Shown: positions 1 through 23,818 of the stretch, one piece after another
How the letters are laid out: each line of letters opens with the position of its first letter
How positions within the stretch are numbered: position 1 is the first letter of the stretch
Assembly (NCBI GenBank): GCA_013152275.1
Contig: JAADGS010000063.1
Coordinates: 62,001-86,402, forward strand
DNA length: 24,402 nt
Direction of reading: 5' to 3'
Origin: Actinomycetota bacterium
Lineage (GTDB): Bacteria > Actinomycetota > Acidimicrobiia > Spongiisociales > UBA4744
Notes under the pieces: model-generated
Database searches by the model: none
Seen by the model: the letters and a program-made list of their open reading frames with translations, nothing else
What the model was told of the DNA's origin: nothing
Program-made: the position numbers and the translations under genes

Positions 1-271
1 TCGGGCTGTACAGGTACCACGAGAAGGAGATCCCCCGTTGGCACCCTCTCGGCTCGTACGGTGGAAGGCCGTCTTCGAGACGCGGATAATCGGTGGCCTG
101 CAACTCCCAGGTCACGATGCCGTCCTTGACGAACACCTCCCAGGAACAACTCCCCGTGCAGTTCACCCCGTGGGTGGTGCGCACCCGCTTGTCGTGCTGG
201 AAGCGGTTTCGGTAGAACTCCTCCCACTTGCGCTCCGCCGGAGCGACTTTCTCTTGCGTCCAATCCTTCAT
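1..271 (-). CDS. narG: Respiratory nitrate reductase / nitrite oxidoreductase alpha subunit (Mo-bisPGD), N-terminal 90 codons; continues beyond the left edge
   Basis: Manual translation from ATG at 271 (ATGA overlap with the cytochrome c stop) gives [90 protein letters not shown]. It has the FS0 motif HGVNCTGSC...PRGC and no twin-arginine signal. Confidence 0.95.
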
Positions 272-1074
272 CGCCCGCTCCTCAGTCGTTCCACATAACT
301 CGTCCGTGATCTCCTGAATATCAACATCACCCCGAACAACACCACTGCACCGATCACACCCAGGACCAACAGCAGATCGACCCCGCCCGACGAAGGCTGT
401 GTCGTCGCGAAGTATGCGGCGAGGTCGGCCCGCTCCGCGTCCGTGAAGGGGCTCGCCCCGAACACCGGTTGCATCGTCGGGGACGGCGGGTTGGCCAGGA
501 CGGCGAAGACACCGTCGGTGCCTCCGAATCGAGCAGACAGGTCGGTGAGGTCCGGTCCCAGCGTGCTGCCACCGAGGTTGGTGTGGCTGCCTGCACTGTG
601 ACATGCGATGCAGGCCGGTCCGCCTCCGTCCAGCCGCTGCACACCGACGAAGATCGCCTCGCCACGCTCGGCGGAGCCGGTCACGGCCGCCGCGGTCGGC
701 ACGGTTACACCCGCGGTAGTAGTGGTCCCGGCCGGCGACCCTTGCAGATCACCCTGCACGTGACCGATCAGCGCGGCGATGTCTGCGTCGCTCAGTGAGG
801 AGAACGGAGGCATGACGCCGTCGTATTGGACTCCGAGCACCTCGATCGGCCCCGAAAGCCCCCCGGTGATCACGGTGCGCACGAACTCGGCATCCTGAAC
901 TGCCGGGTTGCCGGCGAGAGGGGGGAACGATCCTGCAACGCCTTCGCCGGTGGGACCGTGGCACGCCGCACAATTCGTCTGGTAGATGGTGGCGCCGTCG
1001 GGTTCGGCGGCCGAGGCCGCAGGCACGACGGCCATCGTCATGAACAGCGTCGCCGCGACGAGGTAGCGGATCAT
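268..1074 (-). CDS. Membrane-anchored di-heme c-type cytochrome (NarC-like)
   Basis: Sec signal peptide, two CxxCH motifs (CAACH, CIACH) each with a downstream Met candidate ligand (GVMPP, PTMQP), a Thr/Ala-rich linker, and a C-terminal TM helix followed by a basic tail. Directly coupled to narG. Confidence 0.9.
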
Positions 1075-1481
1075 GGATGGACTCCTTCCTCGATGTCCGA
1101 GATCTTGGTGTTCGCGAGTTCGGCCAAGAGGGCGTCACGGGCCCGACTCCATGCATCGTGCAAGGCGCAATGCTCGGTCACCGGACAGGGGGTTCCTCTC
1201 AGCACGCAGCTGCCGTCGACGGTCGGGCCCTCGACCGCCTCGATGAGATTCAGCAACGAAATCTCCGACGTGTTCGTATCCAGCCGGTAGCCCCCTGTAG
1301 GGCCCGGCTCGGAGACCACCCAGCCCTTCACTACCAGCGGCTTCATCACCTGGGCGATGAATGGAGCCGTGGTCCCGATGATCCCGGCCAGGTCTGCGCC
1401 CTTGACGAGACCATCGGTGTGATCGAGCTCGAGTACTGCCTTCAATGCGAGATCGGCTTTCTTCGTGATCTCGAGCCGCAT
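1071..1481 (-). CDS. Rrf2-family Fe-S transcriptional regulator (NsrR/IscR-like), 136 aa
   Basis: Likely start is MRLEITKKADLALKA at 1481 (TGATG overlap with the narK stop); the ORF-track extension to 1988 overlaps narK. Contains the wHTH wing GPTGGYRL, the ISLLNLIEAVEG segment and C-X6-C-X5-C-X2-H. Confidence 0.9.
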   Translation of the reverse strand: MRLEITKKADLALKAVLELDHTDGLVKGADLAGIIGTTAPFIAQVMKPLVVKGWVVSEPGPTGGYRLDTNTSEISLLNLIEAVEGPTVDGSCVLRGTPCPVTEHCALHDAWSRARDALLAELANTKISDIEEGVHP

Positions 1482-2779
1482 CACACCACCTGGGCCACCG
1501 GGTGTTGCGCGGCCCTCTTCAGCCCATAGGCTACGCCGAGTGACAGCACGGCGAGGATCACGAATACGACAAACCCCGTCGCGTATCCCGAGAGATCCGT
1601 GCCTTTGACGAAGAGACCCATCAACGGGGGAACGGCGAAGCCTCCGAAAGCGCCCAGGCCTCCGACCCACCCGGCTGCACCGCCGACCGCCTCGGGGACT
1701 TCCTGTGGTACCAGTTTGAAGACGGCGGCGTTGTTCACGCCCATGCCGATCGCCATGAGGATCTCTGCAAACAGCGAAAGCCCGACACTCGTCGAGAGCG
1801 TCATCAGCACGGCACCTGCCAGCAGCGAGGCAAGCGACAAGATGGCCGTCAGCTCTCCGCCGATTCGGTCCGCGACCGAGCCACCGACGATGCGAATCAA
1901 CGAAGCGAGGATCGAGAACGTCGCGGTGAACGCTCCCGCCGCGACAAGGGAGACCCCCAGGTACTCTTTCCAGTAGGTGGGAAGCCACGCGGTCAGGGCT
2001 ATGAACCCGCCGAAGGTCGTGAAGTAGAGCACCACCATCGCCCAGGTCTTCCAGTTGCGTGCCGAGATCTGGAGCGTTTGGAGCGCCGTCCCTGCAGGGA
2101 ACAGTTCCTCGCCGAGTTCCTGTGCACGCGTCTTGGACTCCTCGACGGAGAGCCCGTGGTCACGGAACTGGAAGAATGGGGCGTTCTGGCCCATGCGCCA
2201 GTAGAGGAATGTGCCGACGACGAGCAGCCCGAGCCATGCAATATAGGCGGTGGAGAGGCCCGCGGCACTCAGGATCAACGGCAGCAGGAACGAGAACATA
2301 CCCGGAGCAAGGTTTCCGGCACCTGCGAACGTGCCGAGCGCCCAGCCCTGGCGTGACTGCGGATACCAGTACGACACCTGGCTGATCCCCACGGAGAACG
2401 TGGCGATCCCCGCCCCGCTCAGCACTCCGAGCAGCAACAGGAGCGGATACATTCCCGGTGTCAGATTATCCGGATAGAGGGTTGTGACGATGACGGCAAG
2501 ACCCGTCATACCCACCACCGACGACAGGAGCAACACGATGAACGGCTTACGTCCCCCTGTCGTGTCGACCCACGCAGAGAACGGAATCCTCAGCAGCGAT
2601 CCCGAGAGTGCCGGCGCAGCCACCAACAAACCGACCTGTCCCGGGGACAGGTCCATGATCTCCTTGAACTTGTGAGCGGTAGGTCCGAAGAGCGCCACCG
2701 CAGCGAACCCGAAGAAGAAACCGAGAGTGGCGGCAAGGAGGCCGGAGCTCGGTGTCCCCTTCGTCCGAAGGTCAGCCAT
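1481..2779 (-). CDS. narK: NarK/NNP-family nitrate/nitrite MFS transporter
   Basis: About 12 hydrophobic helices, nitrate-signature arginines in GSLLRIPF and SLIRIVGG, GAGNL and GWVGGLGAFGGF motifs, and a GGAGG RBS upstream. Confidence 0.92.
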   Translation of the reverse strand: MADLRTKGTPSSGLLAATLGFFFGFAAVALFGPTAHKFKEIMDLSPGQVGLLVAAPALSGSLLRIPFSAWVDTTGGRKPFIVLLLSSVVGMTGLAVIVTTLYPDNLTPGMYPLLLLLGVLSGAGIATFSVGISQVSYWYPQSRQGWALGTFAGAGNLAPGMFSFLLPLILSAAGLSTAYIAWLGLLVVGTFLYWRMGQNAPFFQFRDHGLSVEESKTRAQELGEELFPAGTALQTLQISARNWKTWAMVVLYFTTFGGFIALTAWLPTYWKEYLGVSLVAAGAFTATFSILASLIRIVGGSVADRIGGELTAILSLASLLAGAVLMTLSTSVGLSLFAEILMAIGMGVNNAAVFKLVPQEVPEAVGGAAGWVGGLGAFGGFAVPPLMGLFVKGTDLSGYATGFVVFVILAVLSLGVAYGLKRAAQHPVAQVV

Positions 2780-2790
2780 GTTTCCTCCAA

Positions 2791-2811
2791 GACTCTCTTA
2801 GTCCATGACTA
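2791..2811. promoter_or_regulatory. Candidate Rrf2 operator: GACT-N5-AGTC (2791-2803) overlapping TAGTC-N3-GACTA (2799-2811)
   Basis: Inverted repeats lie between the promoter and the narK RBS. The GACT-N5-AGTC core resembles the IscR type-1 site core. Confidence 0.45.
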
Positions 2812-2823
2812 TACGACTCCGCG

Positions 2824-2853
2824 ACCATACCGCCCCGTCGACTCGCTTGTCAA
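2824..2853 (-). promoter_or_regulatory. Housekeeping sigma70-type promoter for the narK operon
   Basis: Minus strand reads TTGACA (2853-2848) - 18 nt - TATGGT (2829-2824), about 45 nt upstream of the narK ATG. Confidence 0.65.
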
Positions 2854-2870
2854 CCTCTGCGGTTGGGGGA

Positions 2871-4223
2871 TCAGCCCTCTGGTTCTCCGTCCGTGGATTC
2901 TCCGGCGATTGGGCCGTTTCCCGCGATCGGCGGGAGCGGAAACTGGTCGGGTTGGTGCCATTCGGGTCGGGCCCGGGCAGGCGGTTCGGTCACACTCCCC
3001 TGTTGGAAACCCGAGGCGGACGGTACCCCGACCGGTGGTCCGGTCGCGCTCCCCTGTTGACGACTCGAGGCCAAGCCGACCGTCCACGCACCCAGACCGA
3101 GGACTGCCATGATCAGGGCAACGACGGTGCCGAAGACAGGGATCAACAACGAGATCACCCACAGCAGCGAGCCGACGAGGAAACCGGCCTGGCCACTGCG
3201 CCGCCATCCCAGGAGCCGACCTCCTACCGCCGTCAACACGGGGATCGGAGCCAGGAGCACCCCGAGCATGATCATCCCAAGCACCGCGAGCGCGATCGGC
3301 CCTCCGACGACGACCACCGGCAGTGCCATCTCCGGGGAAGCGGCAAGTGCCAGCCCGGCGGCGAAACTGATGAGCAGGATCGGCACCGTCATTGCTGCCA
3401 GCCCGACGAAGAACGTACGCACCGGGGACTGCCGAACCGCAGCCACCGAGCGTTGCAGCATACGCGGTGCAGCCCAGAACATCAGGAATCCGAAGATCAT
3501 GACCGTGAGCACGGTCACCAGTTGCGTCAGCGCGAACATCGCCTGCACGGCCACATTGGGACGGACGGGTTCCCGATGCACGATCTGCCGTCCGACATCC
3601 ACACCCTTCCCGATGACCGCATCGGCCGAAGACCGATAACCGAGCGTCCCCCCGATCCGCGTCCCTGCAGCGACCTCCAACCGGCCGACCGTCATGTCGA
3701 CATCACCGTCGATGGAACCGCCGATCCGTGCACGGTCGATCGTCTGCCCACCGATGTCCCGTCCAACGGTGCCGGACGCGTCGAGGTTGAAGGTCCATGC
3801 GAGCAGATCCCGACCGATGTCGCCGGTAACGGTCACCTGCGACGCTCCGGCGAGAAGGTCACCTCCGATCTTCCCGTCGACCCGCACCGTGGCCGCCCCG
3901 ACCCTGACGGACCCGTCGACGGTTCCGGTGATCACGACACTCGACGCCACACCGGTCACGCTGCCCAGCACGTGGCCGCTGATCAGGACTTCCCCGGTGG
4001 CGGCAAGGAGCACATCTCCCTCCACGGTCCCTTCGATGACGATCCGGTTCCCGGCCGCATAGAGGTCCTCGCTCACGACATCGCCCTTCTGTACCAGAAC
4101 GAGGTCTGCTCCGGCCCGATCGGCCGTGACGAACGGGGCGTGTGCCGCAGCAGGTGCGGCAGAGATGAAAAGCAGCAGCCCGGAAGCCATGAGAAGTGTG
4201 GCGAGTCGAAGTGAGGTCTTCAT
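2871..4223 (-). CDS. Secreted/membrane protein with a bactofilin-like (polymer-forming cytoskeletal) beta-helix repeat region and a C-terminal multi-TM domain
   Basis: Signal peptide ending APAAA-HA, repeated (V/I)xIxGxVxG(D/S)V units, about 5 C-terminal TM helices and a Pro-rich tail. Start is ATG at 4223 or 4235. Confidence 0.75.
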   Translation of the reverse strand: MKTSLRLATLLMASGLLLFISAAPAAAHAPFVTADRAGADLVLVQKGDVVSEDLYAAGNRIVIEGTVEGDVLLAATGEVLISGHVLGSVTGVASSVVITGTVDGSVRVGAATVRVDGKIGGDLLAGASQVTVTGDIGRDLLAWTFNLDASGTVGRDIGGQTIDRARIGGSIDGDVDMTVGRLEVAAGTRIGGTLGYRSSADAVIGKGVDVGRQIVHREPVRPNVAVQAMFALTQLVTVLTVMIFGFLMFWAAPRMLQRSVAAVRQSPVRTFFVGLAAMTVPILLISFAAGLALAASPEMALPVVVVGGPIALAVLGMIMLGVLLAPIPVLTAVGGRLLGWRRSGQAGFLVGSLLWVISLLIPVFGTVVALIMAVLGLGAWTVGLASSRQQGSATGPPVGVPSASGFQQGSVTEPPARARPEWHQPDQFPLPPIAGNGPIAGESTDGEPEG

Positions 4224-4261
4224 GTCTGGCACCATTCTGGCCGAATCGTGACCACAGCGGC

Positions 4262-4316: not shown

Positions 4317-5775
4317 TCAGAAGGGGAACGCTTGTCGGGCGACGTCGAGAAGTGGGCCGGGAATGATTCCGAACACCAGCGTGATCGCGACGGCGATGAT
4401 CAGCACCCATCGCGTTCCGCCGACGGCCTCGAAGCGCCTCGGGGCGGCGCCGGGCGCTTCGGCAAGCGCAGGCGACTGCATGTACATCAGCACGATGACC
4501 CGCAGGTAGAAGAAGAATCCGGCCACCGAGGCGAGCACGGCGAGGATCACGAGCCACTCGAAACCCGCGCTCCACGCCGCCGTGAACGCCGCGAATTTCG
4601 CAATGAATCCCGAGGTGAGCGGCATGCCCGACATGGCAATCATGAACAGTGCCAGCGAGCCCGCGAGCAGCGGCGAACGCTCGGCAAGTCCGGTGTAGTC
4701 GCTGAGCGGCGATTCGGCTCCGGTCGGCCCCGCCACCGCGGCGACCACGCCAAATGCGCCCAGGAGTTGCACGGTGTACACCGCCAGGTAGAACCAGACC
4801 GCGGGCATGCCGACGCCGCCTGCCGTGAGGGCAGTCAGGATGAATCCCGCATGCGCCACCGACGAGTAGGCGAGCATCCGGCGAATGTCCGTCTGCGCGA
4901 TCGCCAACAACACCCCGACGACGATCGAGATGGCGGCGAGAAGAGCGAGACCGGATGACCACTCGTCGATGAACTTCGGAAACGCGAAGATCAGGATCCT
5001 GCCGAGAGCGGCAAAAGCACCGATCTTGGCCGCAGCGACCATGAAACCGACGATGCCGGCCGGGGATCCCTGATATGCATCCGGCGCCCACACGTGGAAC
5101 GGTGCGGCGGATACCTTGAAGGCAACTCCGACGATCAGCAGGGCCATGCCGACCTGCACGACTCCCGGACGCAACAACACGTGTGTGGAGAAGAACTGGC
5201 CGATGCCGATGACGGAGAGGGATCCCGTCCCCGCGAACACCAGCGCGGCGCCGTAGATGAACACCGCCGAAGCGAACGATCCGAGGAGGAAGTACTTGAG
5301 TGCAGCCTCGTCGGCCTGCAACGTCTTTCTCGTTATCCCCGCGAGCACATACAGCGACATCGACGCCACCTCGAGACCCAGGAAGATCAGAACCAGGTTC
5401 GCCGCGGTCGCCATGAACATGAAACCGGCCGCTGCCATGAACACGAGCACGATGCCTTCGGCGCCTCGCCGGCCCAGTTCTTTCACCATCCCCCAGCCTG
5501 CGGCGAGGCCGAGCCCTGCGACACCGACGAGAAGGAAACTCGCGAACGCCCCGAACGTATCGGTGATGAGCATCCCGGAGAATGATGAGCTCGGCGCTTC
5601 TGACGCGGATGCCCACTGGAACCCGACGGCCACCCCCGCCAGCACGAGGGTCGTCGCCGCCAGCCACGCGTGCACTCTCGGGGAGGGCTTGCGGAAGACA
5701 TCCACCATCAGCACGACGACTGCCCCCAGCGTGAGGATGATCTCGGGTCCGACGGCCAGGTAGGAGATGTTCACG

Positions 5776-5783
<8 letters not shown>
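4317..5783 (-). CDS. nuoN: NADH-quinone oxidoreductase subunit N
   Basis: EAALKYFLLG, FKVSAAPFHVWAPDAYQG and RMLAYSSVAHAG motifs; last gene of the operon. The exact GTG start (5786/5783/5774) is uncertain. Confidence 0.96.
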
Positions 5784-7329
<1,546 letters not shown>

Positions 7330-7331
7330 CG

Positions 7332-9236
7332 CTACAGCCCTCCCGTGCTCAGGAACCAGATGACGAAGCCGACCACGCCCGCTGCGATCGTCAGCGCATA
7401 GTTACGTACGTAGCCGCTCTGCAGAGGTCGCAGCGCGGCTCCGATCCGACGAACGACGTTGCCGATGCCGTTCACGGCACCGTCGATGAACTTCTGATCC
7501 AAGACGAATGCCGACCAGGCGGAGGCGAGCTTGCCCGGAGCTACGACGAGGGTGCCGTACACGTCGTCCATGTAGTAGGCGTTCCCCATGCGACGCCACA
7601 GTGAGGGGATGTTCGTCGTCCATGATTCTTCCGCTCCGTCCGGACGGGTATAGAGCCGCCATGCGATGACCATCCCAGCCAGGGCGACGAGCACCGAGAG
7701 CGCTGCCAGGAGCCACAGGAGCAGTCCCCCCGGTTCGCCGGCCAGCTTGATCCCTTCGAACGACGGTTCCAGGAAATGCTCGAGACCGGCCCTGAACGGT
7801 GTGTTGATGAGTCCTCCCACGGTCGCCAGGACGGCAAGAACCATCAACGGGATCGTCATGACCTTGGGCGCCTCGTGCGGATGCACTCCCTCATCCCACC
7901 TCGGTTCGCCAAGGAAGGTCAGAACGAACCACCGGGTCATATAGAAGGCGGTGATTCCCGCCGTGATCAATCCGATTGCCCACAGGACGATCCACCAGCC
8001 ACCGCGGTTGAATGCCGTCCCCAGGATCTCGTCCTTCGACCAGAAGCCGGCGAATGGTGGGATACCGGAGATCGCGAGCGTCGCGATCGCCATCGTGAAG
8101 CCTGTGGTCTTCATCTTCGACCACAGGCCTCCCATCTTGAAGATGTTTTGCTCTTCGGACATTCCGTGGATAACGGCACCGGCGCCAAGGAACAACAAGG
8201 CTTTGAAGAACGCATGCGTCATGAGGTGAAAGACACCGGCAACGTAGGCTGCAGACCCGACGCCGAGGAACATGTATCCGAGCTGGCTGATCGTCGAATA
8301 GGCGAGCACTCGCTTGATGTCGGTCTGTGCCATCGCGATCGTCGCGGCGAAGAACGCCGTCAGGGCGCCGATGGTCGCCACCACGATCGAAGCCGTATCG
8401 GACAGCGCGTAGATCGCAGACGTCCTGGCGATCATGAACACGCCTGCGGTAACCATCGTCGCGGCATGGATCAAAGCCGAGACCGGCGTGGGACCTTCCA
8501 TGGCGTCCGGCAGCCACACATACAAGGGCAGCTGTGCGGACTTGCCGGTGGCGCCCACGAGAAGCAACAGCCCGACGGCGGTGGCCGCCCCCGCACCCAG
8601 CAGCTTTCCAGGATCGTCGAGCACGGTCGTGTACGAAAGCGTCCCGAAGGTCGCGAAGATGACCATCAGGCCGATGAGGAAGCCGAAGTCGCCGATCCGG
8701 TTGACGATGAACGCCTTCTTGCCGGCGGCTGCAGCACTCGGGCGGACATACCAGAACGAGATCAGCAGGTACGAGCACAAGCCGACCAATTCCCAACCTA
8801 CGAAGAGAATCGCAAAGTTGTTCGCCAGCACGAGGGTGAGCATCGACGTGGCAAACAGGTTCAGATAGACGAAGAAGCGCGCGTAGCGATCATCCCCATG
8901 CATGTACCCGATGGCGTACACATGGATCACGGCTCCGACACCTGCCACGATGAGCACCATGAGTGCCGCGAGGGGATCCCACAGCAGCTCGGCAGTGGCA
9001 CCGAGGGCGGGAATCCAGTCGAACAGGCGCACGACATGCGCCTCGGCATTACCTTGGAAGAGAGGGATCGCGGCGATCAGGCCGATCAGGAACGACCCCC
9101 CGATCGTGGTCGAAGCGATCCATCCTGCGAGGGGTTCGCCGATCCTACGACCGAAGAAGTGCAGGAACACGGTCCCGAGTGCCGGCAGCAGAATGACCAG
9201 CCAGATGTTGCGAATGAAGAACTCGGTCATCCTCAT
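7332..9236 (-). CDS. nuoL: NADH-quinone oxidoreductase subunit L
   Basis: [42 protein letters not shown] and the C-terminal QSGYVRNY. Start is 9236 or 9230. Confidence 0.97.
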
Positions 9237-9538
9237 CCCCTCAACTCATGGAACTCGTCGACAGATGTTGTCTGTCGATTACGGAACACGGCGACAATGA
9301 TCGCCAACCCGACCACGACTTCCGCGGCGGCAACGACGAGGACGAAGAACACCGCGAGTTGGCCGGTGAGATCCCGCAATTGACGGCCGGCCGCGATGAA
9401 CGTCAGGTTGACGGCGTTGAGCATCAACTCGATGCACATGAACATCACGATCGCGTTCCGGCGAACCATGAGCCCGAGCGCTCCGATCGCGAACAGGGCC
9501 GCTGCGAGCGTCATGTACCAGCCTGCGGTAACGATCAT
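9233..9538 (-). CDS. nuoK: NADH-quinone oxidoreductase subunit K
   Basis: Start at MIVTAGWY (ATGA overlap with the nuoJ stop); [20 protein letters not shown] and [11 protein letters not shown] motifs. Confidence 0.95.
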
Positions 9539-10062
9539 GGCCGCTCCCTCTTCCGAGATGGAAAGTAGGCGAGGGCGATCGCTCCGACCGCCGCAACGAT
9601 GAGCAAGAGCGAGGTCACCTCGAACGGCAGCACCCACTCGCCGAACAGGCCGGCGCCGATCGCTTCTGCGGTCCCGATGGGAGCCTCTCCAGGCTTGGGA
9701 ACCCCGGTGACCCACGACCAGTTGTTTCCGGCAACCACCGCAATGACGACCCCGAGCGTCACCAGGCCGAGCAGAAACACGAGCAGCCGCTGCGTGGGAA
9801 GATGCTCGGTGAGGTCTTCGGAACGGTCGACACCGATGAGCATGATGACGAACAGAAACAGCGTCATGACCGCACCGGCATACACCATCACCTGCACGGC
9901 GGCGACGAAGTGGGCAAGGTGCACGACGTAGAAGACGGCGAGCGACAGCAGCGTGAGGATCAAGCCCATCGCAGACTTGACCGGATTCCTCGCGAACACC
10001 ACCGACAGCGCACCGACCAAGGCGAGGGAACCGAACAAGAAGAACAGAATCAGCTCGGTCAT
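9535..10062 (-). CDS. nuoJ: NADH-quinone oxidoreductase subunit J
   Basis: Start at MTELILFF with a [29 protein letters not shown] and PFEVTSLLL motifs. Confidence 0.95.
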
Positions 10063-10685
10063 GTCTCCTCCCCCGATTGCCCTTTCTCGGGTTCGCGGGC
10101 CTTGCCGGCTCTGGGCGTCCATCCGACGACACCTTCATACGCCGCCCTTCCGGCAGGAGCCGTCGCCCGCATCCACCCGTCACCTTCGGTGAGCTCCTCG
10201 TAGTTGGCGAGGGGATCGTCGTCGAACATGTGATTCGGTGAGCCGTCCTCGTTGACGAGGAGCTCTTTCTTCGTGTAGATCGCGTCCTGACGGTCCGTCA
10301 CCGACATCTCGAACAGGTGTGTCATCGTGATGGCCCCGGTCGGGCATGCCTCGACGCAGAGCCCGCAGAAGATGCATCGCAGCATGTTGATGTCGTAGAC
10401 GAACCCGTAGCGCTCCCCCGGGCTGACCGGAGCGTCCGGCGGATTGTCGGCACCTCGCACATAGATGCAATGCGCGGGACATACACCTGCGCACAATTCG
10501 CAACCGATGCACTTTTCGGTGCCGTCCGGATAGCGGTTCAACTGATGTCTGCCGTGGAATCTCTGTGGCTTGACACGGAACTCCTTCGGGTACTGCTCGG
10601 TCACGAGACCGTCTTTGAACACGGTCCTCATTCCGATCCCGAAGGTGACTTTGAGGCCTTTGGCGAACTCGGAGATCATGCCCAT
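10059..10685 (-). CDS. nuoI: NADH-quinone oxidoreductase subunit I
   Basis: Two CxxCxxCxxxCP motifs ([24 protein letters not shown]) plus TEQYP and RFHGRH. Start is 10685 or 10679. Confidence 0.95.
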
Positions 10686-11770
10686 GGCAATCCAAACTGT
10701 CGGATTCCGACGACGATGGTGACGAAGACGAGCCAGGCGAGCGCGGCAGGAATCAAACCCTTCCAACCAAGAACCATGAGCCGGTCGTAGCGGATCCGAG
10801 GCAATGTGGCACGAATCCACATGAACGCGAACAGGACGACGAGCGTCTTGAGGAAGAAGTAGGCGATGGGAAGCAGTGCCGAGATCCACACGGGAATGCG
10901 CCCATCGAAGGTCGGACCGTTCCACCCGCCCAGGAAGAGTGTCGCCGTAATCGCCGACATGTTGAACATGTTGATGTACTCGGCGAGGAAGAAGAACGCG
11001 AACCGGATGCTCGAATACTCGGTATGGAATCCGCCGACGAGTTCCTGCTCGGCCTCCACCATGTCGAACGGCGCCCTGTTGGTCTCGGCCACGCCGGCGA
11101 TGAAGAAGATCACGAACGAGATGAACATGGGGATGATGTTCCACCTGGGAATGACCATCAGGATCGGCCAGCCGAACAGGTCGGCGAACGAGCCGGACTG
11201 CGATGCAACGATCTTCTGGATGGAGAGACTGCCCGAGTAGAACACGACGGGGACGAGGGCGAGTCCCATTGCAGCCTCGTACGAGATTGCCTGTGCGGTA
11301 GCCCGCACACTGCCAAGCAACGGGTATTTCGACCCGGAGGACCATCCTGCCATCACGATCGCGTACACGGCGAGCGAGGAAAACGCGAGGATGTACAGCA
11401 GGCCGATGTTCAGATCGGTTCCCTGGAGACTGATCGTTCGTTCAACGCCACCGAGGGTCACGGTAAACGACCGCCCGATCGGGATCACCAGGAAGATGAG
11501 GAAGGCGGGCACCAACGCGATGACCGGAGCAAGGATGTACATGCCGAACTCGGCTTTGCGCGGAGTGATCGGCTCCTTGAAAAACAGTTTCAATCCGTCG
11601 GCGAGCGTCTGCAGCATTCCCCACGGGCCTGCACGATTCGGTCCGATCCGATTCTGCATGTCGGCAACGACCTTGCGCTCGGCCCAGACGAGCAGCAGAA
11701 CGACCACCAGCAACAGACCGAAGATCACGAGGACCTTGACTGCGGCAATACCCACATCCCACCAATCCAT
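10676..11770 (-). CDS. nuoH: NADH-quinone oxidoreductase subunit H
   Basis: [26 protein letters not shown] and [26 protein letters not shown] motifs. Confidence 0.97.
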
Positions 11771-14202
11771 CAGGCGCTCACCTCCTTGCGAACCGTGATG
11801 GCGAGTCGGTCACCGAGAGACGGTATCCCCGGTTGGTTGAACGGGATGTAGACGACTCCTTGGACGAGCGAAGGATCGAGCACCGCGGGCATCACCGCCG
11901 TGCTCGCAGATGTCTCGACCGTGACCTTGTCTCCCGAAACGATCCCAAGCGTTGCGGCGTCGAGCGGATGCAGATATGCGAACGCTCCCGGCGCGAGGTG
12001 CTGCAGCGACAGTGACCTGCGCATCTCGACACCGTCGTCGTACAGTGTCCTGGCCAGGTGCAGGACCAGAGGCGCGGACGCCGATTCGAGTGCATGATCC
12101 ACAGGCGTGTAGTGCAGTGGCTGATCTGCGTCGGGGCCAGGGATGACGACACCCTCACCGAAGGCAAGTGAGCTCCAGGTGACCCCGGCGTAGGCGGGTG
12201 CCACCTCGGCGATCTCCGCAGCGATCGTCTCTGGACAGTCGAAACCCATCGGAGCGTCGAGCCGACGCGCGATCTCTTCGAGGATGGACCAGTCCGGCTG
12301 CGTCTGGCCGGGGCCTGCGACGACGCGGGTGACCTTTTGCACCCTTCCCTCGAGGTTCGTCGAAGTGCCCTGTTTCTCGGCGAACGCTTCCGCCGGCAAC
12401 ACGACGTCCGCACGTGCCGAGGAGTCCGTGAGAAACAGGTCCAGGGCGACCACGAACTCGGCCTTGTCGAGGGCTTCGGCTGCGAGCGCGCCATCGGGGA
12501 CGTCGCGCACCGGGTCGGCTCCCACCATCACCAACGCCTTCAGGTCGCCGGCAACAAGTCCCTCGAGAACCCCTCGGGTGTCGCGTCCCTCATGGTCGGG
12601 TACCGCTCCGAAATCCGCTTCGAAGGAGGCCACCTGGTCTGCATCGTCGAGCGACACCCTCCCCGGCAACAGCCCGGGCGCAAGTCCCATATCGAGCGCT
12701 CCATAGGTATTCGATCGCCGGACGAGCGGCATGATCTTGGCATCAGGCAGTGTCAGAGCGAAAGCTGCGACCGATTCTGCGAGTCGCGGATCCTCGGTGA
12801 GGCCTGTCCGACCGACGATTGCCACCACCGGACCTTCGCCGAGCACGGCGCGCGCGACCGCGTACTCTCCCTCACCTGCAGCGAGGGCACGCAGCACTTC
12901 AGGTCCCTGGCCGGGACGGTAGGTGATCTTGTGTTTCGTCCGGTCGTCGAGCCCCGTTCTTCGCGGATGTACGACGACCAGTTTCGCGCCGTGTTTCTGC
13001 GCCGCCTGCCGCACCCGCAGGTATAACGAACCGAGCTCTTCCTTCAGGTCCGGCGCCCACAGGAGAATGGAGTTTGCGGCATCGAGATCGGAGATCCGTG
13101 CCCTGCGAACCGCCGCAGCGAGGAGCCTCGGATCGAGGCCGTCGTCCATCTGGGCGTCGACGTGGTTCGAGCCGACGACGGTCCGCATGAACTTGGAGAA
13201 CGCGTAGGCGTCCTCGTTGGTGCCCCGTGCTCCACCAAGGCCCGCGACCGCGGCCCCACCCTCTGCATCGATGATGTCTCTGAGGCGTGCTGCAGTCAGA
13301 TCCAGGGCTTCGGTCCACGAGGCCTCACGGTAGCTGCCGTCTTCGTTCCTGATGAGCGGAACTTCGAGCCGGTCTTCCGAGGCGATGAACTCGAAGCCGA
13401 ACCGGCACTTGTCGCTCAACCAGCCTTGGTTCGTGGCGTCGTTGTCGACACCGTTGAACCGCAGAACCTTGTTCCGACTCGTGTCGATCTCGATGCGGTC
13501 ACCCACGGTGCAGTGATGACACGTCGACTCGGCCCTCTGCAGATCCCATGGCCGTGCCTTGAATCGGTACGGCACCGCGGTGAGCGCGCCAACGGGGCAG
13601 ATCTGGACCGTGTTGCCGGAGAAGTAGGAAGAGAACGGCTCGTTCGGGAATGTGGAGATGTGGGTGTTGTTGCCCCTGGCGGTGAACTCCAGGAGCGCGT
13701 CGCCGGCGACCTCGTCTGCGAAGCGCACACATCGCGAGCACAGAATGCAGCGCTCTCGATCCAAGAGCACGAGATCCGAGACCGGGATGGGCTTTTCATA
13801 GTGGCGCTTCTCCTCGACGAACCGGCTCTCCCCGGGCCCATAGCCGAGGGTCTGGTCCTGGAGGGGACATTCGCCGCCCTTGTCACAGACAGGACAGTCG
13901 AGGGGATGGTTGATGAGGAGGAACTCGAGCACACCTTCTTGCGCCTTCTTGACGACAGGCGTGGTCGTGTGGATCACCTGTCCCTCCGTCGCAGGCAGGA
14001 CGCACGCCGGCGTCAGCACCTTGCCCCGCGGGGTCTCCAACTCGACGAGGCACATCCGGCATATGCCCACGGCGGAGAGCCGCGGGTGGTAGCAGAAATG
14101 GGGAATGTAGATGCCGCCGTCACGCGCTGCATCGATGACCGGCCGGCCCTTCGGGACTTCCAGTTCCCGACCGTCGACAGTGATCTTCACCAGATCAGTC
14201 AA
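11770..14202 (-). CDS. nuoG: NADH-quinone oxidoreductase subunit G
   Basis: N1b (CYH...CRMC...C), N5 (HPLDCPVCDKGGEC) and N4 (CILCSRC...C) motifs. TTG start overlaps the end of nuoF. Confidence 0.96.
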   Translation of the reverse strand: MTDLVKITVDGRELEVPKGRPVIDAARDGGIYIPHFCYHPRLSAVGICRMCLVELETPRGKVLTPACVLPATEGQVIHTTTPVVKKAQEGVLEFLLINHPLDCPVCDKGGECPLQDQTLGYGPGESRFVEEKRHYEKPIPVSDLVLLDRERCILCSRCVRFADEVAGDALLEFTARGNNTHISTFPNEPFSSYFSGNTVQICPVGALTAVPYRFKARPWDLQRAESTCHHCTVGDRIEIDTSRNKVLRFNGVDNDATNQGWLSDKCRFGFEFIASEDRLEVPLIRNEDGSYREASWTEALDLTAARLRDIIDAEGGAAVAGLGGARGTNEDAYAFSKFMRTVVGSNHVDAQMDDGLDPRLLAAAVRRARISDLDAANSILLWAPDLKEELGSLYLRVRQAAQKHGAKLVVVHPRRTGLDDRTKHKITYRPGQGPEVLRALAAGEGEYAVARAVLGEGPVVAIVGRTGLTEDPRLAESVAAFALTLPDAKIMPLVRRSNTYGALDMGLAPGLLPGRVSLDDADQVASFEADFGAVPDHEGRDTRGVLEGLVAGDLKALVMVGADPVRDVPDGALAAEALDKAEFVVALDLFLTDSSARADVVLPAEAFAEKQGTSTNLEGRVQKVTRVVAGPGQTQPDWSILEEIARRLDAPMGFDCPETIAAEIAEVAPAYAGVTWSSLAFGEGVVIPGPDADQPLHYTPVDHALESASAPLVLHLARTLYDDGVEMRRSLSLQHLAPGAFAYLHPLDAATLGIVSGDKVTVETSASTAVMPAVLDPSLVQGVVYIPFNQPGIPSLGDRLAITVRKEVSA

Positions 14203-15493
14203 AAGGGCACCCCCCGCCGTGGATGTGTGCCATCACTTCGTCCTTGAAGTAGCGCGTGATCGACGTGATCGGCGACACCGAGGATGGCCCCAACGGGCAG
14301 ATGGTGGTCATCTTCGGAGGCCACAGGAGGCCCGGGCTGATGTTGTCGGCGACATCCAGAAGAAGGTCCGTGTCGACCTCCCGGCCGGCCCCTTCTTCGA
14401 TGCGGCGCAGGATCATCTCCTCCCAGGTCGTTCCCTCCCGGCAAGGAGTGCACTGGCCGCACGATTCGTGGGCGAAGAACCGCACGACTCGCTCGGCGGC
14501 ACGGACCACACATGTGGTGTCGTCCATGACGATGACCGCGCCCGATCCCAACATCGATCCGGCTTTGCCGCACGCATCCTTGGTGATCTCATCATCGAGG
14601 TGCTGCGACGGCACGAACCAGGGTGCACTGGCACCCCCGGGAATCCAGGTCTTGAGTTCGTTCCCCGCCCGGATCCCGCCGGCGACGTCGAAGATGAGAT
14701 CTCTCCAGGTGATGCCGTGCGGAAGCTCGTAGTTGCCGGGTCGATTCACATGGCCGGACACGGAGAACAGGAACGTGCCCGTGTCGACGTCGTGGCCGAG
14801 CGCTCGATAGGCGTCCGCGCCGTGCTCGAGGATGTAGGGCAGGTTGGAGACCGTCTCGACGTTGTTGACGATCGTCGGCATCATGTAGAGACCCTTGGCG
14901 GCCGGGAAGTAGGGCGGCTTGATGCGGGGTTCGCCGCGCCGGCCTTCGAGGCTGTTGATGAGAGCGGTCTCTTCACCACAGATGTAGGCACCGCCTCCGA
15001 GGTGAACGGTCACTTCCAGTTCGTAATCGGTCCCGAAGATCCCCTTGCCGAGATAGCCCTTGGCATAGGCCTCGGCGAGCGCGCGCTGGACCCGGCGTGC
15101 CGGAAGCGGGTATTCGCCCCGGATATAGATGAACGCCTCGTGAACCTCATTGGCGACCGCCGTGATGACGATGCCCTCGATCATCTGATGGGGATCCCGT
15201 TCGAGAAGTTGGCGGTCTTTGAAGGTTCCCGGCTCCGACTCGTCGCCGTTGACAATCAGGTACGCGGGGCGGGCCGGAGCGAGGAAGCTCCATTTCAGGC
15301 CTGCAGAGAACCCTGCGCCACCGCGTCCGATCAGCCCAGAGGATTTCACCAGTTCGACGAGTTCATCCCTGGTCATATCCATTGCCTTGCGCGCTCCGGC
15401 GTAACCGCCGGTCGCCTCGTACGTCTCCAACGTGTGACTGTCGGATGGGTGCTCGATCATCCGTTTCGTCAACACGAGTGGGTAGGTGCTCAC
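14195..15493 (-). CDS. nuoF: NADH-quinone oxidoreductase subunit F
   Basis: GRGGAGF, DESEPGTFKDR, YICGEETAL and the N3 motif CGQCTPCREG...CPLG. Confidence 0.97.
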   Translation of the reverse strand: MSTYPLVLTKRMIEHPSDSHTLETYEATGGYAGARKAMDMTRDELVELVKSSGLIGRGGAGFSAGLKWSFLAPARPAYLIVNGDESEPGTFKDRQLLERDPHQMIEGIVITAVANEVHEAFIYIRGEYPLPARRVQRALAEAYAKGYLGKGIFGTDYELEVTVHLGGGAYICGEETALINSLEGRRGEPRIKPPYFPAAKGLYMMPTIVNNVETVSNLPYILEHGADAYRALGHDVDTGTFLFSVSGHVNRPGNYELPHGITWRDLIFDVAGGIRAGNELKTWIPGGASAPWFVPSQHLDDEITKDACGKAGSMLGSGAVIVMDDTTCVVRAAERVVRFFAHESCGQCTPCREGTTWEEMILRRIEEGAGREVDTDLLLDVADNISPGLLWPPKMTTICPLGPSSVSPITSITRYFKDEVMAHIHGGGCPFD

Positions 15494-16104
15494 GAGGCAC
15501 CTCCTGCCGTCCTGTAAGGGTCGAACGCGGGGAAGGGGCCGATGGCACCTTGTGGCTCGGAGATCGCCGGATCGAACGAACGTGCGCCGCCGAAGCGCTC
15601 CTGGAGTTCGGCCGCCGTGATGGTCTCCGGCCTGTTCTCACGAAGCCACCTGATCATTGCCGCGACGGCTTCGGACGTGACTCCTTCGACCAGTTCATAG
15701 TTGACCTGGACGGCCGGTGCGCCACCGCAGGCTCCGATGCACTCGACGTGTTCGACGGTGACGACCCCGTCCGCGGCGGTTTCGCCTGCCGGGACACCGG
15801 CTTGCTCCTCGGCCGAACTCATGACATCGTCGGCGCCATTGAGCATGCAGGCGATCGACGTGCAGACCGACACGAGGTACTCGCCTTGTGGAATGAGCTT
15901 GAACATCCCGTAGAAGCTCGCCACCGATTCCACCTGTACCGGTGTCAACCCCGTCAATTCTGCGACCACGCGCATACCGTCTTCGGTCACGTAACCGTCT
16001 TCGCGCATGGCCATGTAGAGCAAGGGCATGATGGCGGATCGCTTTTGTGGGTACCGGTCGGCGAGAGACCGGGCCCGGGCGAGAGTCTCGACGCTCCAGC
16101 TCAT
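15490..16104 (-). CDS. nuoE: NADH-quinone oxidoreductase subunit E
   Basis: [2Fe-2S] motif CTSIAC...ECIGAC and VASFY. Confidence 0.95.
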   Translation of the reverse strand: MSWSVETLARARSLADRYPQKRSAIMPLLYMAMREDGYVTEDGMRVVAELTGLTPVQVESVASFYGMFKLIPQGEYLVSVCTSIACMLNGADDVMSSAEEQAGVPAGETAADGVVTVEHVECIGACGGAPAVQVNYELVEGVTSEAVAAMIRWLRENRPETITAAELQERFGGARSFDPAISEPQGAIGPFPAFDPYRTAGGAS

Positions 16105-16109
16105 GATCC

Positions 16110-16223
16110 GATTCCTGTCAATGCCGGCGTCGAATACCGACGCTCATAGTGACGAGAATCTGGCCTCTGGATTCCTGTCAATGCCGGCGTCGAATACCGA
16201 CGCTCATAGTGACGAGAATCTGG
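16110..16223. repeat. Two identical 54-bp imperfect-palindromic units in tandem (period 60 bp), REP-like
   Basis: GATTCCTGTCAATGCCGGCGTCGAATACCGACGCTCATAGTGACGAGAATCTGG at 16110-16163 and 16170-16223. Confidence 0.95.
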
Positions 16224-16228
16224 TCTTT

Positions 16229-17575
16229 TCATCGGTCCACGTCTCCGATCACCGGGTCAAGCGACGAGATGGTCGCAACCGTGTCTGCGATGAGCGAATC
16301 GGACATGGCGATGGGCAGTGCCTGGAGGTTGCAGAACGATGGCGTCCGCATGTGCATCCGCAACGGATGTGTGCCTCCGTCGGAGACCAGGTATGCGCCC
16401 AGTTCGCCCCTCGGAGATTCGATCGCCACGTACGCTTCGCCTTCGGGCACCTTGAACCCCGCAGTGAAGATCTTGAAATGATGGATCAGTGCTTCCATCG
16501 ACTGGTCGATACGTGCACGGGGCGGCGGGGTCACCTTGCGATCCTCCGTGCGGTAGTCACCTTTGGGCATCGACTCTGCGACCTGGCGCACGATGCCCAG
16601 CGACTGAGTGATCTCCTGCACTCGCACACGGTACCGGTCGTACACATCGCCGTTCTCCCCGACCGGAACCTCGAACTCGTACTGCTCGATCCCGCTGTAG
16701 GGCTGGGATTTGCGCAGATCCCATCCGAGCCCCGTCGCGCGCAGATTCGGGCCGGTCGTCCCGTAGGCCAGGGCCTCCTCGGCAGTGATGATCCCGACAC
16801 CGACCGTGCGCTCCTCCCAGATCGGGTTGTGCCTGAGGAGGTCCTCGTAATCTGCGACGCCGGCGAGCACCTTCTCGATGATGTCTTCGATGTCGGCTTC
16901 CCAGCCGTCAGGAAGGTCCGCGGCGACCCCGCCGGGGCGAATGTAGTTGTGGTTCATCCGCAGCCCCGTGGTCTTCTCGAAGAAGGCGAGAATGGCTTCG
17001 CGGTCGCGAAATCCGTACAGCATCATGGACAGCGCACCGATGTCCATGCCGGCAGTCGCGAGGAACACCTGATGGCTGGTGATCCGATTGAGTTCGGTCA
17101 TGAGGATCCTGATCGCCTGTGCGCGCGGTGGAATCTCGACGCCCAGGAGTTGCTCGACTGCAAGCGAGAATGCGAGCTCGTTGTGCAACGGTGCCAGGTA
17201 GTCCATTCTGGTCACGTTTGTGGGGCCTTGGAGGAAACTGAGCTGCTCGCCGGTTTTCTCCATGCCGGTGTGGAGGTACCCGATGATCGGTTTGGTCCGG
17301 CGAATGATCTCGCCTTCGAGCTCGATCTGCAGGCGCAACACTCCGTGGGTGGAAGGATGCTGCGGCCCCATGTTGATGATCATCAGCTCGTCTTCGGGGA
17401 TCTCTTCCTCCACGACGAAATCGTCATCGACTCGAATGCCCTCCTGCTCGACAAGGCGGCTTTCGGGTTCCTCGATGAACATCTCCTGGGCGCCCTCATC
17501 GGTCGAGTCCTTCACCCACTCGGGTTCTTCGGTCCCGGAGATCCAGATCTCGTGCAGTTGGCGCTCGTCACTCAT
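16229..17575 (-). CDS. nuoD: NADH-quinone oxidoreductase subunit D
   Basis: NMGPQHPSTHGVLRL, GYLHTGMEK, RMDY, ESPRGELG and the C-terminal DVDR. Confidence 0.97.
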   Translation of the reverse strand: MSDERQLHEIWISGTEEPEWVKDSTDEGAQEMFIEEPESRLVEQEGIRVDDDFVVEEEIPEDELMIINMGPQHPSTHGVLRLQIELEGEIIRRTKPIIGYLHTGMEKTGEQLSFLQGPTNVTRMDYLAPLHNELAFSLAVEQLLGVEIPPRAQAIRILMTELNRITSHQVFLATAGMDIGALSMMLYGFRDREAILAFFEKTTGLRMNHNYIRPGGVAADLPDGWEADIEDIIEKVLAGVADYEDLLRHNPIWEERTVGVGIITAEEALAYGTTGPNLRATGLGWDLRKSQPYSGIEQYEFEVPVGENGDVYDRYRVRVQEITQSLGIVRQVAESMPKGDYRTEDRKVTPPPRARIDQSMEALIHHFKIFTAGFKVPEGEAYVAIESPRGELGAYLVSDGGTHPLRMHMRTPSFCNLQALPIAMSDSLIADTVATISSLDPVIGDVDR

Positions 17576-18075
17576 GATGCCTCCGGCGACGATTTGAACT
17601 GGATGGGTACGGACCCGACCCCGTAGTCCTTACGAAGCGGGTGTCCCTCCCATTCGTCGGGGAGCAGAATCCGCGTGAGGTCGGGATGGCCCTCGAACGT
17701 CAGCCCGAACATGTCGTAGGCCTCCCGCTCGTAGAAGTTGGCGCCCGGGTACACGGGCACCAACGAATCGACGTTCATGTCGTCCTCCGGCACCGATGCC
17801 CGCAGACGGACACGAAGATTGTGCCGAAGCGAAAGCAGACCGGCAACGAGTTCGAAGCGAACAGGTCGCTTGCCGAGGTAGTCCACGACGGTCTCGTCGA
17901 CCAGCATCTCGAACCCTGCATCCCGTGCTGCCTGCGCGACTTCGCGCCATCGGTTCTTCGGCACCATGAGCACGTCCTGACCGCTCGACAGCGCCCATTC
18001 GACGTCGTCGAACAGTTCGGCGATCCCACCGATGACGGGATCCGGTGCAGCCATCGGTGTGGTCTCGTCGGCCAT
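17572..18075 (-). CDS. nuoC: NADH-quinone oxidoreductase subunit C
   Basis: EREAYDMFGLTFEGHPDLTRILLPDEWEGHPLRKDY. Start at MADETT (TGATG overlap with the nuoB stop). Confidence 0.95.
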   Translation of the reverse strand: MADETTPMAAPDPVIGGIAELFDDVEWALSSGQDVLMVPKNRWREVAQAARDAGFEMLVDETVVDYLGKRPVRFELVAGLLSLRHNLRVRLRASVPEDDMNVDSLVPVYPGANFYEREAYDMFGLTFEGHPDLTRILLPDEWEGHPLRKDYGVGSVPIQFKSSPEAS

Positions 18076-18545
18076 CAGTGAGCGATCTCTCCGGAGACGA
18101 TCTTTGCCTGGAGGGTGAGAATCCCGTGCATCAGCGACTGTGGCCCTGGTGGACATCCGGGAACATAGATGTCGATCGGCACGATCTCATCGACACCCTG
18201 CACAAGGGCGTAGTTGTTGAACATGCCTCCCGACGACGCGCACGCACCCATCGAGATCACCCACTTCGGTTCGGGCATCTGGTCATAGACCTGCCGCAGC
18301 ACGGGTGCCATCTTCTGCGATACGCGCCCGGCCACGATCATCAGGTCCGCCTGACGGGGCGAAGCGCGAAACACCTCCATACCAAAACGAGCAAGATCGT
18401 AATGTGCGGCACCCGTGGCCATCATCTCGATCGCACAACACGCCAGTCCGAACGTGACCGGCCACATCGACCGAGTCTGCGCCCAATGAGCCAGTTTCTC
18501 GACCGTCGACGTCAGGATGCCGGGAGCACCGCCGGTTGCGGCCAT
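18075..18545 (-). CDS. nuoB: NADH-quinone oxidoreductase subunit B
   Basis: [24 protein letters not shown] and PGCPP (N2 cluster ligands). Confidence 0.97.
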
Positions 18546-18946
18546 TATGCGGCCTCTTCTTCACGGACATATCGGGAACGGCGCTTGACATTCCAATCGA
18601 GCGCTCCGCGCTTCCACACATATCCGAGCGTTTCGATGACGAGGAACGTGAAGATGCCGACCGCCGCAATGCCATACCAGCCCAATTCACGGAACTGGAC
18701 CGCCCATGCGAACAGAAAGATCGTTTCGATGTCGAAGATCACGAACAGCATCGCGACGAGGTAGAACTTGACGGGGAATCGCTGGGCAGGCTCGTGCTCC
18801 GGGACGATACCGCACTCGTACGGTGCAAGCTTCTCCGGTGACGGCTTCTTCGGAGCGATGAGCCAGGAGAGTCCGATGCTGCCGAATCCAAATGCCACTA
18901 CCAGCACAAACATGATGGCGACTGGCAGGTAGTCGGCAAGATTCAC
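18545..18946 (-). CDS. nuoA: NADH-quinone oxidoreductase subunit A
   Basis: [22 protein letters not shown] and KRGALDW. GTG start with a GAAGGAAGGG RBS (alternative TTG at 18952). Confidence 0.96.
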
Positions 18947-18973
18947 GGACAAACCCTTCCTTCGGTCCCCGCA

Positions 18974-22602: not shown

Positions 22603-22639
22603 ACGGGCGATCAGCCTACCGGGCCTGAGCGCACAGCAG

Positions 22640-23047: not shown

Positions 23048-23070
23048 GGTGTCCTCCAAAAGCGAGAATG

Positions 23071-23087
23071 ATACCCTCCGGGGGTAA
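23071..23087. promoter_or_regulatory. CsoR/CstR-family type operator ATACCCTCCGGGGGTAA upstream of the rhodanese gene
   Basis: TACCC-N5-GGGTA palindrome with C/G tracts, about 24 nt upstream of the rhodanese ATG, overlapping a minus-strand TATCAT -10-like hexamer (23068-23073). Confidence 0.65.
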
Positions 23088-23171
23088 TAACACGATCTCA
23101 ACGAGACCCTGCTGCTTCACCGACACCAGCCGACGCGGTCCATCGATTTCGACCGATCGCCACGCGCGAAT

Positions 23172-23813: not shown

Positions 23814-23818
23814 GCCGA

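Follow-up and report, generated by a model that had tools for sequence, protein, structure and literature searches.

The window analysed here is a stretch of 24,402 nucleotides (G000:C10:62001-86402; G000 is the genome that carries it, other G numbers denote sampled relative genomes and L numbers extracted loci). At its left end begins an operon for a cytoplasmic nitrate reductase (Nar), which very probably encodes the four-subunit enzyme known from Thermus, with the cytochrome c NarC beside NarG, NarH and NarI. In the host genome, which is 100% complete with 0.89% contamination, this enzyme very probably works in the nitrate-reducing direction. The operon is real and well conserved; its core is an enzyme of known type, here in a new lineage. 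New are the absence of the known NarC partners, a predicted tie to a Rieske/cytochrome b complex, the pair of an Rrf2 regulator and a candidate operator, and the breadth of the arrangement across phyla.

The preliminary description of this DNA had placed four overlapping minus-strand genes with the junctions TGATG, ATGA and ATGA, and they were found at the same positions. They encode a nitrate/nitrite transporter of the major facilitator superfamily (MFS; 1481..2779, 432 amino acids), an Rrf2-family regulator (1071..1481, 136 amino acids), the di-haem cytochrome c NarC (268..1074, 268 amino acids) and the 5′ end of NarG (1..271), which continues past the window edge. Beyond the left end of the window the contig goes on, as expected, with intact narG, narH, a narJ-like gene and narI (G000:C10:62271-55732, minus strand). 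The full-length NarG has 1204 amino acids and scores 1500 bits with TIGR01580 (cut-off 1084). NarI has 299 amino acids and carries a C-terminal tail of two helices; the narJ-like gene has no NCBIfam match.

Homology and synteny with Thermus narCGHJI uphold the earlier proposal of a heterotetrameric Nar with a cytochrome c. A search for homologues of the cytochrome returned c-type cytochromes of Thermus as the best plasmid matches (40-41% identity over residues 26-225, E 2e-35). In Thermus JL-18 (NC_017588.1) the matching cytochrome gene directly precedes narG, the place that is reported for narC in Thermus (PMC7694296), so that the supposed relationship to Thermus NarC is confirmed. The Thermus-type order, narC directly before narG and then narH, narJ and narI, is also present. 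Identities to the JL-18 operon are 40% for NarC, 75% for NarG (74.6%), 73% for NarH, 44% for NarJ, 60% for NarI and 60% for the transporter. NarG is 74-75% identical to 14 Thermus records and less than 60% to the remaining 295 of 309 plasmid records, the best of which reaches 49%. It has no twin-arginine translocation leader, and its alignment to E. coli NarG begins at E. coli residue 27; Thermus NarG, too, is described as having no N-terminal anchor segment (PMC10609526).

NarC has a hydrophobic N-terminal leader (residues 5-23), CxxCH motifs at 35 and 155 and a single C-terminal helix (234-252) in the hydropathy profile. It was rightly described as an exported, C-terminally anchored di-haem cytochrome directly before narG, export being judged from hydropathy only. 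The haem ligands are C35/C38/H39/M88 for haem 1 and C155/C158/H159/M201 for haem 2, and the CxxCH motifs and both methionines do not vary across alignments of 20 and of 29 sequences, the Thermus row included. The N-terminal domain is nearest to Thermus cytochrome c552 both by sequence and by fold (model with a predicted local distance difference test, pLDDT, of 77.8). NarI retains the four haem histidines that a Thermus-type Nar requires.

The first gene had been called narK. A nitrate/nitrite MFS transporter it is (MFS_1), but of another subtype: it shares 60% identity with the sole transporter in the JL-18 nar operon and only 26-36% with the NarK1/NarK2-type transporters of relatives, and it falls below the TIGR00886 cut-off. 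Since the JL-18-type transporter of the Thermus nar operon is called NarO (PMC6394727, section 14), we assign the gene to NarO and not to NarK1/2.

The terminal enzymes of the host genome bear on the direction of the reaction. A PF00115 profile search for haem-copper oxidases (COX1 family) and nitric oxide (NO) reductase (Nor) gave no match in the host genome; the control search matched in 9 of 14 genomes. NirK, NirS and NosZ gave no match there either, and the NrfA model produced only weak matches to one multihaem protein. Present are cytochrome bd, a NiFe hydrogenase, a CooS-type CO dehydrogenase and at least 17 open reading frames (ORFs) with five or more haem motifs. Because no haem-copper oxidase or Nor, NirK or NirS was found, NarC is without its Thermus partners in this genome. 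The preliminary description had suggested an extracytoplasmic haem-c branch; in the Thermus form, leading outward to nitrite and NO reductases, this does not fit a genome in which Nor, NirK, NirS and NosZ were not found. It had also likened the operon to the nitrite oxidoreductase (NXR) of Nitrobacter. Without a haem-copper oxidase match there is no outlet for aerobic nitrite oxidation, narG is present in a single copy, and the RuBisCO search returned only a RuBisCO-like protein (52 bits) and not the form I enzyme that marks Nitrobacter-type NXR hosts. The nitrite-oxidising reading is therefore not supported for the host genome: searches there turned up neither a haem-copper oxidase nor NirK, NirS or a true RuBisCO, and nitrite oxidation is unlikely. 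The lack of haem-copper oxidase matches extends to the whole genus (G000, G001, G002), and the other 18 narG genomes all have matches. NirK was found in one of the 20 narG genomes as against 10 of 41 others. Outside the genus, 56 of 58 sampled genomes have haem-copper oxidases. The host genome also carries several Rieske/cytochrome b loci and many multihaem cytochromes.

The host had been taken for an actinobacterium, and this holds: the nearest named cytochromes (87%) are labelled Actinobacteria bacterium, BMS3Bbin01 and BMS3Abin02, Acidimicrobiia provide the named loci that are closest, and NarG falls into an Acidimicrobiia clade. All named-locus counts given here rest on the best 80 of 511 loci. 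We take the order of the host to be UBA5794. Our order sample comprises 61 genomes, of which G034 enters only the denominators of the tallies. The narG gene occurs in 20 of them, with narC directly before it in 20 of 20; in 18 of 19 relatives narC is in turn preceded by an Rrf2 gene, and the 19th locus begins only 340 bases upstream. Of the additional genomes in which the DNA before narG is present, 12 of 12 have narC-narG. Among the named loci, the cytochrome is immediately followed by narG in 76 of 80; two of the remaining four lie at a contig edge and two are an oxidase-linked paralogue. These loci come from about ten phyla, including Deinococcota, Bacteroidota, Chloroflexota, Gemmatimonadota, Acidobacteriota and Planctomycetota, and also bear proteobacterial and clostridial labels and one archaeal label. 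With 20 of 20 genomes and 76 of 80 named loci, the narC-narG layout is widespread. The preliminary description thus made it seem rarer than it is: the host is indeed actinobacterial, but this is the usual Nar of its order and occurs in many phyla. For UBA5794, narGHI has been reported in 14-17% of genomes, and the available part of that report mentions no cytochrome (PMC12008989). Our literature search, made largely without full texts or supplements, found no description of a NarC-type Nar in Acidimicrobiia and, within the same limits, none of a cytoplasmic Nar fed by a Rieske/cytochrome b complex.

In wider samples, for which only six to eight candidates were scored per genome, NarC was found in 1 of 400 other genomes of the phylum, that one in the same order, and in 13 of 300 of the class, all in the same order, though named Acidimicrobiales loci carry NarC. 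A FastTree of 62 NarG sequences was built from 53 of the 76 named loci (those omitted being mostly partial or broken), five of our extracted loci including that of the window, Thermus, and three ordinary NarG as root. In it the window's sequence groups with Acidimicrobiia in a clade with support 1.0, to which two Chloroflexota are sister, followed by Deinococcota. A recent transfer from Thermus is not favoured by this position; the tree would fit an old acquisition, and we claim no donor. Three single loci vary the arrangement. G798 (L204) belongs to a different order within the class; its NarG is ordinary (48%), an Rrf2 gene lies close by and narC is missing. G077 (L203) has a more distant narC-narG (61%). 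In G262 (L111:5726-6646) the outer haem domain of NarC is tandemly duplicated before narG, and the stretch has no rrf2 match.

Some 4 kb beyond narI, in the same orientation, lies a Rieske/cytochrome b operon. It encodes a two-helix protein, a flavin/iron-sulphur (Fe-S) protein that binds nicotinamide adenine dinucleotide (phosphate), NAD(P), a split cytochrome b with an APWY motif in subunit IV, a Rieske protein and a cytochrome c. The cytochrome b of this flavoprotein type is found in 19 of the 20 narG genomes (as a fragment in the 20th) as against 11 of the 41 others, and one of those 11, G016, has a truncated nar operon on the same contig. It lies on the same contig within 25 kb of narG in 9 of the 20, and in the flank of 10 of the 76 named narC-narG loci, including Acidimicrobiales and one Chloroflexota. 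The two counts are not additive, since some may be the same genomes.

In relatives, the usual first gene of the Rieske operon consists of a leader, a c552-like domain about 50% identical to the outer domain of NarC, one helix and a two-helix module; it usually lies beside a ba3-type oxidase. This module is the same as the tail of NarI, which occurs on the intact NarI of G000 and G002. In G000 about 330 bp have been deleted, covering the haem domain of this paralogue, a domain still present in G002. A 79-amino-acid two-helix ORF remains at the head of the G000 Rieske operon (L001:7708-7944 on G000:C10, outside the window). In G120 (L100:6743-14610) and G221 (L101:3140-10970) the place of that first gene is taken by a NarC-like gene and a NarI-like gene with the tail; the operon, complete in these two genomes, reads ba3 subunits II and I, the NarC-like and NarI-like genes, and then the flavoprotein, cytochrome b, subunit IV, Rieske and cytochrome c genes. 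The first four genes recur in this order in G026 (L042:7960-11763), and in G157 (L098) a tailed NarI-like gene precedes the flavoprotein gene. In G120 the operon with these NarC-like and NarI-like genes stands back to back with the nar operon. All four NarI-like paralogues have lost His56 and His205. The G026 protein had suggested that a NarI holding just the distal haem might serve generally as a wire from quinol to NarC; we rejected this because three of the four have lost His66 as well. A homologue search with the G026 protein returned only itself, and in an atlas search with the two-helix module no score reached 0.8.

Modelling predicts that the tail of NarI docks on subunit IV of the neighbouring complex III. 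A model of the tail with cytochrome b and subunit IV scored 0.66, the best of three controls 0.00, and the mark used is reached by 116 of 157 solved pairs and 2 of 215 mismatched pairs. The runs agree in at least 88% of the contacts, the partner pLDDT is at least 79, nearly all contacts are made with subunit IV, and the topology agrees with a start in the cytoplasm. A physical tie of Nar to the Rieske/cytochrome b complex is on this evidence slightly more probable than not.

NarI residues were numbered by alignment to E. coli NarI, and its haem assignments are used for the aligned histidines. The four haem histidines are kept in all 42 intact NarI; the Lys86 position has Arg in 39, as in Thermus, and Gln in three. 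The Gly65 position has Gly in 25, Ala in 11 including the window's, Met in five and Leu in one. We assume that a change from Gly65 to Ala closes the quinol site; no paper supporting this was found.

The mechanism that we favour would combine these elements as follows. The enzyme would reduce nitrate in the cytoplasm, with the NarI tail docked on the neighbouring Rieske/cytochrome b complex. Menaquinol acting through that complex, or an outer multihaem network, would be the source of electrons, and NarC would carry them inward, from the cytochrome c side of the complex via NarI haems bD and bP to NarH and NarG. This route would supplement or replace the direct oxidation of quinol at NarI. NarC would also be needed for assembly, as in Thermus, and NarO would exchange nitrate for nitrite, which might be excreted or handled by another enzyme. 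Electrons would likely enter via NarC because its known acceptors were not found and because docking on complex III is predicted; the co-occurrence of the two operons, the shared two-helix module and the Ala at Gly65 also speak for this reading. That NarC is a port on the cytochrome c side with net inward flow in the host genome we consider slightly less than an even bet. Whether NarCGHI and the APWY-type, NAD(P)-linked Rieske/cytochrome b complex form a single supercomplex, a cytochrome c:nitrate oxidoreductase running the Nitrobacter path in reverse, is doubtful. A four-haem, lipoprotein-like cytochrome with an internal duplication is encoded just downstream of narI in four genomes (L001:8294-9781, L024, L031, L102) and is a possible further partner of NarC.

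Several observations weigh against inward flow and a physical tie. The tail is present in only 2 of 42 intact NarI, and the separate 79-amino-acid copy in the host genome may be the real binder of subunit IV. The model cannot tell the two apart, since its alignment mixed tail and stand-alone copies; it also used three chains, unlike the calibration, and close cousins of a true partner also pass the mark. The nar and Rieske operons are 1.16 Mb apart in G043, about 0.6 Mb apart in G150 and on different contigs in family f6, and the co-occurrence counts were taken among kin. NarI keeps all four histidines and the Arg at Lys86, like Thermus, and 25 of 42 keep Gly65. The multihaem cytochromes of the host genome are alternative outward acceptors. 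In thermodynamic terms, moving electrons inward against the membrane potential is marginal. For Thermus NarC, flow is reported to be outward and to bypass the bc complex (PMC7694296), and the APWY motif of subunit IV has been suggested to mark complexes that run in reverse (PMC4122944).

Some of these points suit a Thermus-like outward branch, in which NarI would oxidise menaquinol and NarC would export surplus electrons, to a multihaem network in the host and to a ba3 oxidase in relatives. Cytochrome c552 is the donor of the ba3 oxidase, and the outer domain of NarC is closest to it. Haem-copper oxidases occur in 18 of 20 narG genomes, the ba3 type often between the nar and Rieske operons, and the histidines and Arg86 of NarI, the many multihaem cytochromes of the host and the direction reported for Thermus (PMC7694296) agree with such a branch. 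Yet no oxidase of this family and no Nor, NirK or NirS was found in the host genome, no multihaem gene is conserved in the operon, and a NarI tail predicted to dock on subunit IV is left unexplained. We regard outward export as possible but rather unlikely.

NarC could also serve mainly as an assembly or anchoring subunit of an ordinary quinol:nitrate reductase, the nearby Rieske operon merely reflecting clustered genes of anaerobic respiration. Thermus narC mutants are reported to make soluble, immature NarG (PMC7694296, PMC10609526), the NarG of the window has no N-terminal anchor segment, and NarC accompanies this type of NarG in 76 of 80 named loci whatever the lineage. Against a purely structural role, the haem ligands of both NarC domains are all invariant, and the fusion of the tail and the exchange of the c552-anchor gene for NarC-like and NarI-like genes point to a functional interface. 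This explanation seems quite unlikely to us.

A Nitrobacter-type NXR is very improbable. In it, electrons from nitrite would pass NarI and NarC on their way to an oxidase and would also be driven uphill to NAD(P) by the APWY complex. In its favour, a review calls the N. hamburgensis cluster very similar to that of Thermus (PMC7694296), a close relationship between cytoplasmic NXR and Nar is described (PMC3504966), and NarC, ba3 oxidase and APWY complex co-occur in relatives, of which 2 of 34 tested have a full-score RuBisCO. Against it, the host has no haem-copper oxidase match but only cytochrome bd, only a RuBisCO-like protein and one narG copy, and the closest characterised enzyme (75% identical) is a nitrate reductase. 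In the oxidase-bearing relatives nitrite oxidation is also improbable, though less strongly so. The two genomes with full-score RuBisCO are G150 (L205:7189-9345) and G318 (G318:C222), and in G150 a phosphoribulokinase-like ORF, judged by eye, lies beside the RuBisCO gene. Both also have a NarC-type Nar, oxidases with aa3 and ba3 scores and the flavoprotein complex, and may be considered candidates for nitrite-driven autotrophy.

The preliminary description had seen an embedded Fe-S sensor, and the Rrf2 gene inside the operon does have intact predicted Fe-S ligands: Cys92, Cys99, Cys105, His108 and Asp10. The three cysteines and the histidine are invariant in 21 of 21 sequences; residue 10 is Asp in 17, Glu in one and His or Asn in three. 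Its counterparts are Glu8 in the alignment to 6hsd and, by offset, Asp8 in NsrR (PMC11500311). The protein passes the cut-offs of PF02082 and TIGR00738 and lies below those of IscR (43.1 vs 207.55 bits), NsrR (27.5 vs 182 bits), RirA and CymR. Between the -10 box and the ribosome-binding site, an array of AGTC/GACT half-sites (2792..2818) is a candidate operator for Rrf2. It holds the inverted repeat TAGTC-ATG-GACTA at 2799-2811, and its core is invariant in three genomes. Of 18 operons that have an Rrf2 of this type, 11 show paired half-sites upstream (shuffle mean 0.02-0.09 each), and 8 of 15 do so after the three that defined the motif were dropped. This suggests autorepression through the array, in which the holo-protein would repress until NO or low oxygen alters its cluster. 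The exact 5-3-5 repeat occurs just once in the genome, and a genome-wide regulon was rejected on this ground.

A different Rrf2 protein of 168 amino acids precedes narC in genera g3 and g10 (L026, L027, L028, L029, L033-L036, L038). It is 33-38% identical to that of the window and shares its Cys/His pattern, and the motif found upstream is another one, AACGTCAAG...AACGTTAAG; judged from the sequences, two Rrf2 types occupy the position before narC. Upstream of the nar operons of L112, L037, L107, L115, L116, L114 and L043 there is a GGGAC(C/T)TT(C/T)GNCCCTA-like motif, none of which was seen upstream in the window. It resembles the consensus of the mycobacterial DosR box.

The promoter given in the preliminary description, TTGACA-N18-TATGGT, is present, but the match alone does not exceed chance: it is the single promoter-like site in positions 1-3200 (2853-2824), and since shuffles give 0.5 ± 0.8 such sites it is by itself within expectation. 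The site gains support from relatives, in which its hexamers are kept. The TTGAC and last A of the -35 hexamer (2848..2853, minus strand) are conserved in G002 and G006, and the -10 hexamer (2824..2829, minus strand; TAnnnT) reads TATGGT in G002 and TAGAAT in G006. Directly upstream, 2871-4235 on the minus strand encodes a membrane protein with a weak bactofilin-domain match, also present in G002. The rest of the window includes an apparently complete nuoA-N operon for complex I (4317-18952, minus strand; judged from translations). At the far end (21361-24402, minus strand) are genes that by eye encode a geranylgeranyl-reductase-like flavoprotein, a rhodanese-like protein and a Rex-like regulator, and the end of another subunit-IV-like gene, 40% identical to the APWY subunit IV.

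In a large actinobacterial order without cultured members, nitrate reductase is usually of the NarC type, and this type is found in about ten phyla. A 2020 review states that NarC is absent from the nar operons of mesophiles and describes its electron-transfer role as unresolved even in Thermus (PMC7694296). A genome that lacks all known NarC partners makes this role testable. If electrons do enter through NarC, a bacterial cytoplasmic Nar would be coupled to the Q-cycle, and the energy yields assigned to nitrate respiration would change for these lineages. If the supercomplex exists, the Q-cycle or external donors such as reduced minerals would drive nitrate respiration in an oxidase-free, multihaem-rich genus, and the same parts in G150 and G318, with ba3 oxidase and RuBisCO, would make these the first nitrite-oxidising actinobacteria. 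Calls of narG or nxrA in metagenomes need genome context to be read in this clade.

Compared with known systems, the operon is most like that of Thermus thermophilus: it shares the narC-G-H-J-I order, an anchored di-haem NarC with the same ligands, NarO, a NarG without N-terminal segment and 40-75% identity. It differs in that the transporter gene is first and not last, and that rrf2 stands within the operon, whereas DnrS/DnrT and DrpAB are reported beside the Thermus one (PMC7694296, PMC6394727). Ala replaces Gly65 in its NarI, which also bears the two-helix tail; no partner of the Nir or Nor kind was found; and its neighbour is a Rieske/cytochrome b operon, while in Thermus NarC is reported to bypass complex III (PMC7694296). 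With the cytoplasmic NXR of Nitrobacter and Nitrolancea, compared by description only, it shares alpha, beta, NarJ-like and b-type membrane subunits (PMC7694296, PMC3504966, PMC7365893). Nitrobacter NXR is described as also having an outer cytochrome c, and its electron path is possibly the same in reverse; unlike these organisms, the host has a single alpha-subunit gene and neither a cytochrome c oxidase nor a Calvin cycle was found. No named NxrA occurs among the best 80 named loci or the 60 plasmid records listed for NarG. As in Corynebacterium narKGHJI-ArnR, where the Fe-S repressor is NO-responsive, a putative Fe-S repressor is encoded at an actinobacterial nar locus (PMC12343034), but ArnR is not an Rrf2 protein and that Nar is of the ordinary type, as is a Rhodococcus plasmid NarG (47-49% identical to the window's). 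Streptomyces NsrR likewise has three cysteines and an N-terminal Asp (PMC11500311), whereas our Rrf2 lies far below the NsrR cut-off and has in addition a His at the IscR position. The split cytochrome b with the APWY motif (PMC4122944, PMC12954380) and the NAD(P)-binding flavin/Fe-S subunit in the operon are reported for the APWY clade and the NAD(P)-linked complexes of anammox bacteria; here, unlike there, they lie beside narCGHJI and, in most relatives, a ba3 oxidase. A precedent for such a neighbourhood is the haloarchaeal Rieske/cytochrome b-Nar cluster, for which feeding of NarGH by the Rieske/cytochrome b proteins has been proposed from gene context (PMC3509893).

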